From the NCBI RefSeq assembly GCF_058153355.1, contig NZ_CM177019.1: a DNA stretch of 64,000 nt; one strand, 5' to 3'. The translations under genes were made by a program, and so were the position numbers. Under the pieces are notes generated by a model that had not been told where the DNA came from, did not search any database, and saw only the letters and a list, made by a program, of their open reading frames with translations. Shown here piece after piece: positions 13,037-52,158 of this stretch. Every line of letters begins with the position of its first letter. The stretch's first letter is position 1.

Positions 13037-14722
13037 TTGAAGAAGGTTTGGCTTAACCGTTATCCCGCGGACGTTCCGACGGAGATCAACCCTGACCGTT
13101 ATCAATCTCTGGTAGATATGTTTGAGCAGTCGGTCGCGCGCTACGCCGATCAACCCGCGTTTGTGAATATGGGGGAGGTGATGACCTTCCGCAAACTGGA
13201 AGAACGCAGTCGCGCGTTTGCCGCTTATTTGCAACAAGGGTTGGGACTGAAGAAAGGCGATCGCGTTGCGTTGATGATGCCTAATTTATTGCAATATCCG
13301 GTGGCGCTGTTTGGCATTTTGCGTGCCGGGATGATTGTCGTAAACGTTAACCCGTTGTATACCCCGCGTGAACTTGAGCATCAGCTTAACGATAGCGGCG
13401 CATCGGCGATTGTTATCGTGTCTAACTTTGCCCACACTCTGGAAAAAGTGGTTGATAAAACCGCCGTTCAGCACGTAATTCTGACCCGTATGGGCGATCA
13501 GCTATCCACGGCAAAAGGCACGGTAGTCAACTTCGTTGTTAAATACATCAAGCGTCTGGTGCCGAAATACCATCTGCCAGATGCCATCTCATTTCGCAGC
13601 GCACTGCATAACGGCTACCGGATGCAGTACGTCAAACCCGAACTGGTGCCAGAAGATTTAGCTTTCCTGCAATATACCGGCGGTACCACTGGTGTGGCGA
13701 AGGGCGCGATGCTGACTCACCGCAATATGCTGGCGAATCTGGAACAAGTTAACGCGACTTATGGGCCGCTGTTGCATCCGGGCAAAGAGCTGGTGGTGAC
13801 GGCACTGCCGCTGTATCACATTTTTGCGCTGACCATTAACTGCCTGCTGTTTATTGAACTGGGTGGGCAGAACTTGCTTATCACTAACCCGCGCGATATT
13901 CCGGGGTTGGTAAAAGAGTTAGCGAAATATCCGTTTACCGCGATAACCGGCGTTAACACCTTGTTCAATGCGTTGCTGAACAATAAAGAGTTCCAGCAGC
14001 TGGATTTCTCCAGTCTGCATCTTTCTGCAGGCGGTGGTATGCCTGTTCAACAAGTGGTGGCTGAACGTTGGGTGAAACTGACCGGACAGTATCTGCTGGA
14101 AGGTTATGGCCTGACCGAGTGTGCGCCGCTGGTCAGCGTTAACCCGTATGATATTGATTATCATAGTGGTAGCATCGGTTTGCCGGTGCCGTCGACGGAA
14201 GCCAAACTGGTGGATGATGATGATAACGAAGTACCACCGGGTCAACCGGGTGAGCTTTGTGTCAAAGGACCGCAGGTGATGCTGGGCTACTGGCAGCGTC
14301 CGGATGCTACCGATGAAATCATCAAAAATGGCTGGTTACACACCGGCGACATCGCGGTGATGGATGAAGAAGGATTCCTGCGCATTGTCGATCGTAAAAA
14401 AGACATGATTCTGGTTTCCGGTTTTAACGTCTATCCCAACGAGATTGAAGATGTCGTCATGCAGCATCCTGGCGTACAGGAAGTCGCGGCTGTTGGCGTA
14501 CCTTCCGGCTCCAGTGGTGAAGCGGTGAAAATCTTCGTTGTGAAAAAAGATCCATCGCTTACCGAAGAGTCACTGGTGACTTTTTGCCGCCGTCAGCTCA
14601 CGGGCTACAAAGTACCGAAGCTGGTAGAGTTTCGTGATGAGTTACCGAAATCTAACGTCGGCAAAATTTTGCGACGAGAATTACGTGACGAAGCGCGCGG
14701 CAAAGTGGACAATAAAGCCTGA
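13037..14722 (+). CDS. fadD: long-chain fatty acyl-CoA ligase
   Basis: ORF 12971-14722; start placed at TTG 13037 after SD GAGGTGAAG, giving 561 aa (M)[30 protein letters not shown]...; AMP-binding motif [18 protein letters not shown]. Confidence 0.93.
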
Positions 14723-14741
14723 GCGTTAAGTCAGTCGTCAG

Positions 14742-14767
14742 ACGCCGGTTAATCCGGCGTTTTTTTT
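14742..14767 (+). terminator. rho-independent terminator after fadD
   Basis: Hairpin ACGCCGG-TTAAT-CCGGCGT followed by T7 run, about 20 bp after the fadD stop. This may correspond to the SroD sRNA region of K-12, which I cannot confirm. Confidence 0.7.
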
Positions 14768-25736: not shown

Positions 25737-26093
25737 TCACAAGCTACGTAGCCAGTCTGCCAGCACCAGCGCATGGTTCTGCGTGGTGTTTTTTGCTGAG
25801 TAGAGCAGGGTTAGCGGCTGTTTTTTGGCGATGTCTGCCAGCCGCTTTCCTGCTTGCTCGTGTTGCGCCAGTTCTGCAAGATATTGCTCGCGAAAGGTTG
25901 CAAAATCGACGACTTCGCCGACTTCGCCGTGAAAGGCTTTGCGCAGTTCCGTTGACGGCGTGATTTCTTTATCCCACTCATCAAGGGCTAAATCGGTTTT
26001 TTTGATACCACGCGGCCAGAGGCGGTCGACCAGTACGCGATAACCATCGCTCTGTTCTGCCGGATCATAAACGCGTTTGCACTGAATATTCAT
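25737..26093 (-). CDS. yeaO: DUF488-family protein
   Basis: ORF 25737-26114; start at ATG 26091-26093 (MNIQCKRVYDPAEQSDGYRVLVDRLWPRGIKK...). Confidence 0.85.
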   Translation of the reverse strand: MNIQCKRVYDPAEQSDGYRVLVDRLWPRGIKKTDLALDEWDKEITPSTELRKAFHGEVGEVVDFATFREQYLAELAQHEQAGKRLADIAKKQPLTLLYSAKNTTQNHALVLADWLRSL

Positions 26094-27425: not shown

Positions 27426-28247
27426 ATGATGCACAGGTTGAATCTCAATGGCTATGAACCCGACCGACACCATGAAGCCGCGGTCGCATTTTGTATTCAC
27501 GCCGGAACGGATGAGTTAACCAGTCCTGTACATCAGCACCGCAAAGGGCAGTTGATACTGGCACTACATGGTGCAATTACCTGTACGGTGGAAAATGCGT
27601 TGTGGATGGTGCCGCCACAATATGCGGTTTGGATACCGGGCGGGGTGAAACATAGCAATCAAGTGACAGCTAACGCTGAACTCTGTTTTCTGTTTATAGA
27701 GCCCAGCGCAGTGACAATGCCGACAACATGTTGCACATTGAAAATATCGCCCTTATGCCGGGAATTAATTTTAACCCTGGCAAACAGGACGACGACTCAG
27801 CGTGCTGAGCCGATGACCCGCAGATTAATTCAGGTCCTGTTTGATGAACTGCCTCAGCAGCCACAACAACAGCTGCACCTGCCCGTTTCTTCTCATCCTA
27901 AAATCCGCACGATGGTGGAGATGATGGCGAAAGAGCCCGTCGAGTGGGGGTCATTGGGCCAATGGGCTCGCTTTTTCGCGATGAGTGAACGCAATCTTGC
28001 CCGGCTGATAGTGAAAGAGACGGGGTTGAGTTTTCGCCAGTGGCGTCAGCAGTTACAGTTGATTATGGCGCTTCAGGGATTAGTGAAAGGCGATACAGTA
28101 CAGAAAGTTGCACATACGCTGGGGTATGATTCAACAACGGCCTTTATTACTATGTTTAAGAAAGGCCTGGGGCAAACGCCAGGCCGATATATTGCGGGAT
28201 TAACTACTGTTTCCCCACAATCAGCGAAACCAGACCCGCGGCAATAA
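27426..28247 (+). CDS. nimR: AraC-family transcriptional regulator
   Basis: 273-aa ORF with cupin-like N-terminus and C-terminal AraC HTH ([28 protein letters not shown]). Confidence 0.88.
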
Positions 28248-28650
28248 GCGGGCCAACCGGTACGCCGCGAAACAGCGCCACGCCCAAAACAGTGCCCACC
28301 AGCAGCCCGGCGACCAGTTGCGGCTAGCTGCCCATTAACGTCACGCCGCGCCCACCTAGCCAGGAGACAATAACGCCTACTGCAATTGCCACCAGCGATT
28401 TCCAGTTCAGAAACGAGTGAATCAGGGGTGAGGGCGGTAGCGTCCCGCTGGCGATGGGGGCCATAACGCCAATAGTCAGAATGATTATCCCGATACTTAG
28501 CCCCTGTTTTTCAATCCACGGGAAAAAGGTGCTTAACGGTGTGACGCGGACAATGATCAACACCAGAATTGAAACGGCGACAGTGGTGTTATGACTGATA
28601 AAGCCCAGCGCAGCTAACCCGAGCAGGATCAGCAAAGTGACATCAAACAT
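28204..28650 (-). pseudogene. yeaL: UPF0756/DUF441 membrane protein gene interrupted by an in-frame amber codon
   Basis: Frame opens at ATG 28648-28650 ([23 protein letters not shown]...) and hits TAG at 28324-28326 after 108 codons; the same frame continues [39 protein letters not shown] to a stop at 28204-28206, which would give the 148-aa length I recall for K-12 YeaL. Confidence 0.55.
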
Positions 28651-28749
28651 CGTGGTTTCCTTGCCAAAAAAAAATAAGCCTGCTTACTTTACGCTTGCTG
28701 CAGGAAGGAGGTACAAAATCTTTATGTTTTTTGCATAAATTCAGGCGTA

Positions 28750-28767
28750 CTGTCATCAAACTGCCAT
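28750..28767 (+). promoter_or_regulatory. Pho box (PhoB binding site) upstream of yoaI
   Basis: CTGTCAT-CAAA-CTGCCAT matches the direct-repeat Pho-box consensus (CTGTCAT-N4-CTGTCAT), about 50 bp upstream of the yoaI ATG. Confidence 0.45.
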
Positions 28768-28816
28768 TTGTACACGCTATCAATAACGTGAAAACAGTTA
28801 TCTCCCGGGGCATACC

Positions 28817-41023: not shown

Positions 41024-41296
41024 ATGAATCTTGATGACATTATCAACAGCATGACGCCTGATGTATACCAGCGTTTGTCGACTGCCGTTGAGCTGGGGAA
41101 ATGGCCCGATGGCGTTGCGCTGACCGAGGAACAAAAAGAGAACTGCCTACAGCTGGTGATGCTGTGGCAAGCCCGCCATAATACCGAAGCACAGCATATG
41201 ACAATTGACACACATGGTCAGATGGTTATGAAGAGCAAACAACAGTTAAAAGAAGATTTTGGTATCTCAGCAAAGCCTATTGCCATGTTTAAATGA
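41024..41296 (+). CDS. yeaC: DUF1315-family protein
   Basis: ORF 40979-41296; start at ATG 41024 after SD GGAGCGG (MNLDDIINSMTPDVYQRLSTAVELGKWPDG...) giving 90 aa. Confidence 0.85.
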   Translation: MNLDDIINSMTPDVYQRLSTAVELGKWPDGVALTEEQKENCLQLVMLWQARHNTEAQHMTIDTHGQMVMKSKQQLKEDFGISAKPIAMFK

Positions 41297-41464
41297 TTGA
41301 ATTATTCAGCTTTTTGAGTCTGTTATTAAGTGCGAACAAAAATACTTGTTTGACGTCTTGATTGTTCGATTTAGCGGTTGATAGGTTAAATGCAACACTG
41401 ACGAGTATAACCTGGCCTACGATGTCAATGAGGAAATGTAGGCCAGAGATGTATTCAACTAATA

Positions 41465-42106
41465 TTACTCCTGCGTCTCTTCCCAGTCTGCCAGCGTATA
41501 TAGCGTTGCCCCAGCTGCTGACATCTCCATAAACGCGTGCGCACTGTCCTGTGGCTGGATATTCACGCCACGACAACCATCGGTAATCACATTAACCTTA
41601 TAACCTAACTGTAACGCGTCCAGCACGGTAAACTTCACGCAATAGTCAGTAGCCAGGCCCATAATGATCAATTCATCGATTTCATGATCGCGTAACCAGT
41701 CATCGAGCGTGGTTTTCTGCCGACGGCCGTTATCAAAAAAGGCACTGTAACTGTCAACTAAAGGATTTTCGCCTTTATGGAACACCGCTGCGATCGCTTT
41801 TTGGTTCAGTAACGGATGTAATTGTGCGCCTTCACTGTTCTGCACACAGTGATCTGGCCAGAAGGTTTGTGGCAAACCGTCGAGTTGGCCTGGCGTATAA
41901 GGCTCTACACCGTGCTGACTGGCAAAACTGCCGTGATTCGCCGGGTGCCAGTCTTGACTGGCGATAACCGCTTCACCGCGCGACTGGCACCAGTCAATCA
42001 GGCGGTTAGCGACATCCACCGTACTGTCACCTTCCGGCACGGCGAGCGCGCCACCAGCACAGAAATCATTTTGTAAATCGACCAGTAACAGGGCGCGAGG
42101 GGGCAT
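41465..42106 (-). CDS. pncA: nicotinamidase / pyrazinamidase
   Basis: ORF 41465-42124; start at ATG 42104-42106 (MPPRALLLVDLQNDFCAGGALAV...) giving 213 aa. Confidence 0.93.
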   Translation of the reverse strand: MPPRALLLVDLQNDFCAGGALAVPEGDSTVDVANRLIDWCQSRGEAVIASQDWHPANHGSFASQHGVEPYTPGQLDGLPQTFWPDHCVQNSEGAQLHPLLNQKAIAAVFHKGENPLVDSYSAFFDNGRRQKTTLDDWLRDHEIDELIIMGLATDYCVKFTVLDALQLGYKVNVITDGCRGVNIQPQDSAHAFMEMSAAGATLYTLADWEETQE

Positions 42107-49799: not shown

Positions 49800-52158
49800 G
49801 TCGGGTAGCAGCGATTCATTACTGTCTCGCCGCCCCCTAAGAACGGTACGTGCGAGTTTCCCCGCATACCGCTCAAGCCTTTATAAGCCTCCACCTTGTG
49901 GGAGACCAGCGTCATTACTATGTAGTTGTCGATGGCAGTTGGGATGGAGTAGGACTAAATTGCTCACATCATCGCTACCGCCAAGAGATTTCTTGAGCAA
50001 ATGATGAACATTCCATCCTGTATCGCGATTAATCGGTTGCTCACATAAAGGGCAGCGCGATCCTTGCCTTTTCCATATAGCGAGAATCCTTTTCTGCCCC
50101 TGTTGGGATTTCTTCCATGAGTAGTCCAGCCTTCTTTCGAAGTATGTTTCCCACTCGGGATCATATGGATTTGCCGTTCCCTTTATTTTTATATAGCGAT
50201 TAATATGGATGTCGCTGGCCCGGGACAGAACATATTTCCTACCCTCCGGATCGACTCCATAAAATCGACCATGACACATTTTTATTGTCGTGTGGTACTT
50301 TCGGAAGATCCATCTCCGGCCTTTGCCGGGATGTCTCCTTCTGCACCACTGCCAGATTTTGCGCCAGATTTGGTTGTCGACATAGTTAAATGTCTCTGCC
50401 GATGCTACATGTTGGTGATAGTTTGCCCACCCGGTGATGATTGGATTAAGCAGATTTATTAGCACCCATGCAGGAACCGTTCGGTTACCTTCAATAGTCT
50501 CTCTGATCTTGCTAAGAAATTGTTTAACGTTTTTCTTGGCTGGTCTGATTATGAGTTTTCTACCGAAGCGTCGGACGTGCTGCCCAAGGAAATCAAATCC
50601 GTCAGTAATGTGAGTGATGACCGTTTTCTCTTCGGATAACGTCAGCCCTCTTTCTGCAAGAAATGATTTCACCAACGGAAGAACATTCTCCTCCAGAAGT
50701 TCTTTCGACTTTCCGGAAATGATGAAATCATCAGCATACCGGACGAAGTGAACCTGATGTTTCCTGAATGTTTTTGAGCGTTTCGGACCAAAGCGATTTT
50801 GCAGCAGTCTTTCCAGTCCATCCAGGGCCATGTTTGCCAGAACTGGAGATATGATTCCTCCCTGGGGTGTACCCGAGAGAGTTTTGCTGAATATGCTTTT
50901 TTCGATGATCCCGGCTTTCAACCAATTACGGAGTATTTGCTTGTCCATAGGAATATTTTCAAGCAGCCACTCGTGGCTAATGTGTTCAAAGCATCCTTTA
51001 ATATCGCCTTCCAGAACCCATTTCGAGGCGTTCCGGGAACTATACATATTACATACCTGTTGAATGGCGTCAGCCGTACATCGCGCTGGTCTGAAACCAT
51101 AACTGTTGTGATCTGCATTAGTTTCCGATACAGGCTCCAATCCCAGCAGATGCAGGGCCTGCATTGCCCTGTCAAGCATGACGGGGATTCCTAATGGTCT
51201 TTTCTTGCCATTAGATTTGGGTATAAAAACTCTTTTTAGCGGTAGGGGCTTGTACCCTTTTCGCCTGAGTTTGAATATCGCTTCCCATTTTGATTCTGGA
51301 GTACTCCAGATTTGACCATCAACTCCGGGGGTTTTACGCCCGCTATTTTCCGTAACTCGTTTCACCGCCAGTGCTCTGGCGCTGAATGAGCGAACCAGCA
51401 ATCGTTGCAATCTACCGACTGTACGCCATTGCTGGTTACATGCCGCCTTTGCGATTCTTGTCTGTATGGTTTTAACGTGTTGATGGCATTTCTTCCAGTT
51501 AATGGAATGCCAACCTTTTCCGTTGATGACCGCAGTTACATTGTTAGATGTAATTTTCATACATGTCATCCAAAGAAACCTTCGCAGATGTTTCGCAATT
51601 AAAGACCAGATGGAAGTCAGCACGGTTTCCCGTTAAGGCAAATATTGAACCTCTATCCGCACGATTACAGTCCGGCTTTCGCTTTTTCCATCCTCCTTTA
51701 CCCGCATTCTCATCAGTTTGCCTTACGGTGCCCCTGCCACTAGGGCGAGAATTCGGGCTTACCAAGTTCCGACCAACATACAAAGAACGGGTTAGGTTCT
51801 GTCTATCCGCCGGGGGAGTTATTGTCCATGTATTCCCACTACGAACAGGAATAGCCTTACCCCTTACCTTTTGGTGCAAGCCTATCAGCATCTTTGGCTC
51901 GTTCTCTGTTACGACGTTTAACGACAGTTCACTATGTTAACCATACCGCCCAGCCTAGCGCTCTCGCCGCATGATGCTTGTAGCGATCAGGTTTTCTCAC
52001 GATTAACTGAAGCAATATTTGCTAAGCTACATTGTCCCAAGGGCTTCAGACAGAGCCGTTACCAGCTTTGCCTGCCTCAGTAGGCTACAACTAATGGAAT
52101 AGTTGGTTTTATATAAATAATTTATCAAAACAATATGTTGGACGACTTCTTGTCGCAC
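49800..52158 (-). mobile_element. group II intron, full length with intact intron-encoded protein (boundaries approximate, +/- 10 bp)
   Basis: Minus strand: 5' end GTGCGACAAG... at 52158; about 535 nt of domains I-III; ORF in domain IV (49881-51560); canonical 34-nt domain V GAGCGGTATGCGGGGAAACTCGCACGTACCGTTC at 49842-49875 (AGC triad, GAAA tetraloop) 6 nt after the ORF stop; short domain VI ending about 49800. Confidence 0.85.
49881..51560 (-). CDS. group II intron reverse transcriptase/maturase with C-terminal HNH endonuclease domain
   Basis: ORF 49881-51623; likely start MKITSNNV... at ATG 51558-51560; RT block with YADD catalytic motif (VHFVRYADDFIISG), maturase X region, and HNH/En motif (CPLCEQP...WNVHHLLKKSLGGSDDVSNLVLLHPNCHRQLH). 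Confidence 0.88.
   Translation of the reverse strand: MKITSNNVTAVINGKGWHSINWKKCHQHVKTIQTRIAKAACNQQWRTVGRLQRLLVRSFSARALAVKRVTENSGRKTPGVDGQIWSTPESKWEAIFKLRRKGYKPLPLKRVFIPKSNGKKRPLGIPVMLDRAMQALHLLGLEPVSETNADHNSYGFRPARCTADAIQQVCNMYSSRNASKWVLEGDIKGCFEHISHEWLLENIPMDKQILRNWLKAGIIEKSIFSKTLSGTPQGGIISPVLANMALDGLERLLQNRFGPKRSKTFRKHQVHFVRYADDFIISGKSKELLEENVLPLVKSFLAERGLTLSEEKTVITHITDGFDFLGQHVRRFGRKLIIRPAKKNVKQFLSKIRETIEGNRTVPAWVLINLLNPIITGWANYHQHVASAETFNYVDNQIWRKIWQWCRRRHPGKGRRWIFRKYHTTIKMCHGRFYGVDPEGRKYVLSRASDIHINRYIKIKGTANPYDPEWETYFERRLDYSWKKSQQGQKRILAIWKRQGSRCPLCEQPINRDTGWNVHHLLKKSLGGSDDVSNLVLLHPNCHRQLHSNDAGLPQGGGL

Follow-up and report, generated by a model that had tools for sequence, protein, structure and literature searches.

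A probable nonsense pseudogene: an in-frame amber codon at position 109 of Escherichia coli yeaL

Results

The yeaL gene lies on the minus strand of the window (the whole 64-kb stretch of DNA analyzed here), in a neighborhood that has kept the gene order yeaK-yoaI-yeaL-nimR-nimT. From the ATG at 28650, the frame runs through 108 sense codons (28327..28650, minus strand) to an amber codon, TAG, at 28324..28326, which appears as CTA on the plus strand at 28324-28326. Past this stop, the same frame continues for another 39 sense codons (28207..28323, minus strand; PQLVAG...IVGKQ, residues 110 to 148) and reaches a second TAG at 28206-28204 (feature 28204..28206, minus strand), the natural stop of yeaL. 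The whole ancestral frame (28204..28650, minus strand) totals 148 codons, belongs to the DUF441/UPF0756 family and is colinear with the annotated yeaL genes of NZ_CP169309, NZ_CP062811 and K-12 (b1789). Across the 39 orphaned codons we observed no additional stops or frameshifts, and strain Res13-Sevr-PER07-33, in which yeaL is intact, has exactly the same sequence there.

We compared the two possible products with the DUF441 profile PF04284, for which the gathering cutoff is 26.5 bits. The 108-aa product matched positions 1 to 101 of the 139 HMM positions with a score of 96.9 bits, and the 148-aa read-through product matched positions 1 to 139 with 150.7 bits. The translated product does not comprise the full DUF441 domain (HMM positions 1 to 139, including G133-P134). 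yeaL has an in-frame stop at a position where its orthologues have a sense codon, with the remainder of the frame colinear and syntenic, which is the definition of an "internal stop" pseudogene. A preliminary description of this DNA had given the yeaL coordinates, the counts of 108, 39 and 148 codons and the DUF441/UPF0756 assignment, all of which were confirmed by our reading of the frame and by the PF04284 match.

On its 3' side, yeaL is convergent with an intact nimR gene (27426..28247, plus strand), which shares 44 bp with the 3' end of yeaL and ends 77 bp short of the amber codon. This convergent overlapping pair has been listed as an excludon (PMC12288877). On its 5' side, yeaL is separated from the divergent yoaI gene by an intergenic region (28651..28816) that holds a PhoB box, TGTCATCAAACTGCCATT (28751-28768); yoaI is reported to be activated by PhoB (PMC10294691). 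yeaL itself has been described as a hypothetical gene repressed by the small RNA UhpU (PMC12704781). The intergenic region also contains seven lineage-specific changes at 28672-28748, i.e., 22 to 98 bp before the yeaL ATG, which consist of five substitutions and a 2-bp deletion with an adjacent substitution and leave the PhoB box unaffected. The affected sites are identical in K-12, in MFDS1019527, in two other E. coli lineages and in E. albertii, and the best identity found for the 191-bp upstream region among 5,408 genomes was 95.9%. Import of this upstream haplotype from another species was not indicated, as the changes are absent in E. albertii and the variant upstream 29-mer was not found in the GTDB species representatives. 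Conceivable causes of the changes are a relaxation of constraint, mutations that arose together in one event, and transfer from a lineage that has not been sampled.

To establish the ancestral state of codon 109, we aligned the locus with yeaL from K-12 (b1789) and from eight other E. coli loci, and all of them carried CAG (Gln). We then searched 5,426 complete RefSeq E. coli genomes by megablast with a 30-base query in a CAG version and a TAG version, each 28-mer word of which spans the variable base. The CAG 30-mer was present in 3,995 of these genomes and the TAG 30-mer in none. Likewise, a 24-mer with the TAG was not found in the GTDB species representatives or in JGI metagenome contigs. 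Among the best 120 homologues listed, most are about 148 aa long and cover 99 to 100% of the query, and distant full-length relatives, down to 27% identity, align to residue ~145. Thus, the TAG in yeaL is a derived nonsense mutation, given the CAG in orthologues and the full length of the relatives. The mutation lies at base 28326, where the plus strand now has A in place of the ancestral G; it is a C:G-to-T:A transition in the first position of codon 109, in the context GCAGC[C>T]AGCCG. This context (GCCAGC) contains no CCWGG Dcm site, and the mutated C is not the inner cytosine of a CCAGG or CCTGG. A programmed read-through or recoding site was not indicated either, since the stop is not conserved in the orthologues and the frame runs unbroken at this position in the family across bacteria. 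The preliminary description had proposed a CAG-to-TAG nonsense mutation in a protein with a natural length of 148 aa rather than a natural end after residue 108, and the E. coli alignment and the homologue lengths agree with it on both counts.

We then investigated which parts of YeaL are removed by the stop. In an alignment of 68 family members with 27 to 97% identity to E. coli YeaL, the only invariant columns were G133 and P134, and the near-invariant columns were G54, P65, G92, G102, P110, G119, G123, G129, L135 and G139. Both invariant columns and 6 of the 10 near-invariant ones (P110, G119, G123, G129, L135 and G139) lie after the stop, within the 40 removed residues. An AlphaFold model of YeaL built on this 68-sequence alignment (mean pLDDT, 87.9; pTM, 0.70) predicted helices at residues 4-18, 22-36, 38-68, 73-79, 83-108, 110-127 and 134-145, the first five of which fall in the retained 108-codon open reading frame. 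According to this model, the stop removes the short helices 110-127 and 134-145 together with the G-x-P-V-G-P-L connector, and residues 112-141 are hydrophobic on the Kyte-Doolittle scale. The earlier suggestion that the truncation deletes the last transmembrane segment thus holds insofar as the C-terminal hydrophobic part is gone, but the model places two short helices there and not one. A fold search of the YeaL model against the PDB returned no match. Conservation within the family is highest in this lost segment, so that YeaL function is very probably lost with it and the 108-aa protein is most probably nonfunctional or unstable.

Over the tested 22 kb (18000-40000), the window was at most 98.7% identical to any of the 5,426 complete RefSeq E. 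coli genomes, which indicates a deep-branching, poorly sampled E. coli lineage, as judged from sequence identity. To find closer relatives, we used as a clade marker the yeaO gene (25737-26093, minus strand), which carries a 9-nt in-frame insertion (118 aa versus 115 aa) and whose exact protein is encoded by just five public contigs. Two of these five contigs, from GCA_043012465.1 and Logan SRR28786219, carry the same yeaL TAG as the window, from which they differ at 2 sites in 12,357 to 20,327 bases. Overall, the near-identical assemblies with this TAG (L014, L015 and L017) showed 99.98 to 99.99% identity to the window over 12 to 20 kb. As these near-identical assemblies were made independently, an error of base calling is ruled out: the TAG is a genuine sequence feature and has become fixed in a small clade within this lineage.

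One of the two differences lies in yeaL itself, where codon 75 (28426..28428, minus strand) is CCC (Pro) in the window and ACC (Thr) in the near-identical relatives (T75P, window position 28428). Since the relatives have the TAG but retain T75, the window strain gained T75P after the amber mutation. T75P also occurs in the intact 148-aa YeaL of other E. coli (one protein variant on 115 contigs), and T75P alone is therefore no sign of decay. We considered this T75P lineage as the source of the window allele and rejected it, because it shows only 97.3 to 97.7% identity to the window and the true relatives have T75; the T75P of the window is thus independent and later. The other difference, and the only one besides T75P over 20 kb, is a missense change in yoaF (25504) that affects codon 15, in the signal-peptide region.

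The low identity to complete genomes raised the suspicion of a Shigella-like genome decay, for which we checked the other genes of the window. Of the 53 window genes that aligned over their full length to NZ_CP169309 and in which the frame could be checked, yeaL was the only one with an internal stop, which argues against genome-wide decay and against a changed genetic code. A Shigella-like decay was rejected on these grounds, and the only mobile element met in the window was a group II intron. This intron occupies the topB-gdhA intergenic region (49800-52106, minus strand), which measures 84 bp in NZ_CP169309. It is delimited by Rfam matches to Intron_gpII (domains V/VI; 49800-49876) and to group-II-D1D4-7 (51959-52106) and contains an open reading frame for a 580-aa reverse transcriptase/maturase (49881-51623). 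The window is also a mosaic with respect to the nearest genome, as the per-gene identity ranges from 90% (yoaC) and 93 to 94% (ynjF and ynjC) to 100% (gapA and pncA). At 41292-41465, the window lacks eight genes that form a cluster in the reference strain (ydjL-ydjK-ydjJ-ydjI-ydjH-ydjG-ydjF-ydjE), and pncA comes ~170 bp after yeaC. The small RNA sroD (14681-14766, plus strand; Rfam RF00370, 115 bits) was found at its expected and ordinary site, at the 3' end of fadD before rnd.

We also looked for the Q109* allele outside the clade, by an exact look-up of the 108-aa product, which returns a mix of true TAG contigs and genes running off a contig end. The true Q109 TAG was present on two further backgrounds, L016 (Logan ERR2192287) and L018/L019 (GCA_014807465.1 and GCA_958305345.1). 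These backgrounds differ from the window at ~306 to 308 sites per 10 kb (1 to 3% divergence) and from each other at 111. Each TAG haplotype has closer relatives that carry CAG, and the three haplotypes share a common tract of only 26 to 44 bp around codon 109. Recombinational spread of a single TAG allele was rejected on these two observations, which speak much more strongly for separate mutations than for transfer; the Q109 CAG-to-TAG change thus arose three times or more, each time on a different E. coli background.

Two local mechanisms that might have favored codon 109 were considered and rejected. A hot spot for a mobile element or an att site was suspected from six long contigs, belonging to several lineages, that all stop precisely at ...GGGCAGCCA, with partner contigs starting 0 to 2 nt before codon 109. 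Partial products of 107, 108 and 109 aa were found in 197, 165 and 172 blocks, respectively; such similar counts imply that contig breaks are evenly spread and that an exact look-up picks out those falling in one codon. The apparent hot spot was thus a selection bias of the product look-up, and no complete genome has the region twice. Templating of the mutation by a quasi-palindrome or direct repeat, from the nearby GGCTAG (CTA at codon 98), was discarded since codon 98 reads CTG in the L016 and L018 lineages.

Other nonsense alleles of yeaL are found in public data as well. Truncated products were looked up for five other single-transition nonsense changes (W45*, Q49*, W83*, W97* and Q111*) and were all present, on 59 to 253 contigs each, counts that include genes cut by contig ends; W97* is the one that we checked at the DNA level. 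W97* proved to be a true internal stop, found as TAG on at least five haplotypes and once as TGA. The W97 codon, TGG, sits within CCTGG, which is a Dcm site, and the 5-methylcytosine of Dcm CCWGG sites is a classical deamination hot spot. One W97* haplotype occurs in six complete RefSeq genomes, where PGAP has annotated the gene as a pseudogene with an "internal stop" (NZ_AP045171.1, 2236488-2236934). For the neighboring non-essential gene yeaK, taken as a control in the same collection, the nonsense alleles Q76* and Q81* were true stops in a few public contigs. Codon 109 is thus not special compared with the other single-transition nonsense sites of yeaL that we looked up, and repeated C-to-T nonsense mutation in a dispensable gene is the baseline at this data set size. 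In a different kind of variant, E. coli MS15047 (NZ_CP082100.1, 2020424-2020618), the match was confined to the initial 34% of the yeaL query, in a region annotated over the DUF441 gene and nimR, which suggests an internal deletion in yeaL of that strain.

Discussion

We propose that yeaL in the window is a nonsense pseudogene, an explanation to which we assign a probability of about 0.9. A spontaneous C:G-to-T:A transition at base 28326 would have converted codon 109 from CAG to TAG, and translation would then end after Ser108, with the first ~70% of the DUF441 domain retained. The product, deprived of the last two helices and of the G-x-P-V-G-P-L motif, would most probably be a nonfunctional or unstable membrane protein, and the nonsense allele would have become fixed in the small clade. 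No polar effect is expected, as only the convergent nimR lies downstream, with its coding end 77 bp from the mutation. The mutation is likely to be evolutionarily young because nothing downstream of it has decayed, and the preliminary description, which had called it recent, was right to the extent that undecayed downstream codons point to a fairly recent event.

Three readings that would leave a working YeaL were weighed against the nonsense pseudogene. An error of sequencing or assembly, with the gene itself intact, might be suspected from the rarity of the TAG, given that the TAG 30-mer occurs in no complete RefSeq E. coli genome and the TAG pattern is absent from the GTDB representatives and JGI metagenomes; however, at least two independently made assemblies of near-identical strains (GCA_043012465.1 and Logan SRR28786219) carry it, as do the two unrelated lineages L016 and L018/L019, and such an error is hardly credible. 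A genuine TAG might still be read through, by a supE or supF suppressor tRNA or by a near-cognate tRNA-Gln, in amounts that yield useful levels of functional full-length YeaL. The 39 downstream codons are perfectly intact, Gln inserted at the UAG would recreate wild-type YeaL, and the base next to the stop is a C, in general a relatively leaky context for UAG, in which near-cognate insertion of Gln would give a low level of wild-type protein. Yet intact downstream codons are equally expected of a young mutation, and part of the downstream stretch overlaps nimR and is constrained regardless. Moreover, no tRNA gene was found within the 64-kb window, and 4 of the ~53 checked window genes end in TAG, a normal rate (yeaX, yoaI, nudG and yeaL itself use it as an ordinary terminator), so that a strong suppressor would be costly; we thus regard substantial read-through as very unlikely. 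A split gene, in which translation restarts to give a C-terminal peptide that reassembles in the membrane with the 108-aa N-terminal part, would draw on the in-frame 31-codon open reading frame that starts with GTG at codon 118 (31 aa, 28299-28204), and gene callers do predict a comparable C-terminal piece of 43 to 46 aa for the W97* allele. By eye, however, no Shine-Dalgarno-like motif precedes this GTG (GCCGGGCTGCTG GTG), the restart would omit P110 and most of helix 110-127, and all family members are single chains, so that the arrangement is not conserved; reassembly of this kind can be given next to no credence.

A further possibility concerns not the state of the gene but the reason for its loss, namely that yeaL is repeatedly inactivated because its loss is beneficial in some niches, the recurrence at codon 109 then being a product of selection. 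Consistent with this notion, Q109* occurs on at least three backgrounds that share a 26- to 44-bp tract, W97 amber or opal alleles are found on six or more haplotypes (one of them with TGA), products of 44, 48, 82 and 110 aa (codons 45, 49, 83 and 111) are present in public data, and seven derived, lineage-specific changes lie directly upstream of yeaL in the window, within 80 bp that are otherwise invariant. Against it, the W97 codon lies in a CCTGG Dcm hot spot, and mutation bias thus accounts for the frequency of W97*; the counts of truncated products mix true stops with cuts at contig ends; and the true stops Q76* and Q81* of yeaK occur in the same collection. Among E. coli assemblies that number in the hundreds of thousands, any C-to-T site in a dispensable gene is expected to show homoplasy, and the intact yeaL allele is overwhelmingly dominant. 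Adaptive parallel loss is compatible with yeaL being a nonsense pseudogene but is not required by the data, and we consider it unlikely, although less so than read-through. If inactivation were indeed selected in parallel, loss of YeaL would be beneficial in some habitats, which might offer a handle on its function. In any case, several wild lineages can do without yeaL, as the recurrence data show.

In practical terms, the locus should be annotated as a pseudogene with an internal stop and not as a 108-aa gene, and its importance beyond annotation is small. The strain and its clade are natural yeaL-null (or severely truncated) variants and as such a possible comparison for studies of this widely conserved DUF441 protein.

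One point of reference is the intact YeaL (K-12 b1789; WP_000460707.1; PF04284), whose first 108 residues differ from those of the window only by T75P, whose 39 C-terminal residues are identical to those encoded by the codons after the stop in the window, and whose neighbors yoaI and nimR are conserved. The intact protein has 148 residues, in contrast to the 108 of the window product, which lacks the conserved C-terminal helical pair. With respect to the type of mutation, the window allele resembles the classical amber mutations of the lacI type, in which cytosine deamination converts CAG to TAG and termination is dependent on RF1 and suppressible by supE (Gln). The base change and its consequence are the same; in contrast to the lacI-type ambers, the yeaL mutation occurs naturally, as a polymorphism that a wild lineage has fixed, at a site that is not a 5-methylcytosine (CCWGG) hot spot. 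A further close match is provided by the yeaL alleles that PGAP has annotated with an "internal stop" (W97*; NZ_AP045171.1, AC0JZ5_RS10880; mouse strains M6, M9, M11, M15 and M19), which concern the same gene in the same synteny. As in the window, a single-base transition created a TAG within the frame, past the midpoint of the gene, and left the downstream codons intact, whereas the codon affected is 97 instead of 109 and lies in a CCTGG Dcm site instead of the non-Dcm context GCCAGC. Q109* is thus an ordinary gene-inactivating mutation, of a kind that is already annotated in other E. coli genomes.
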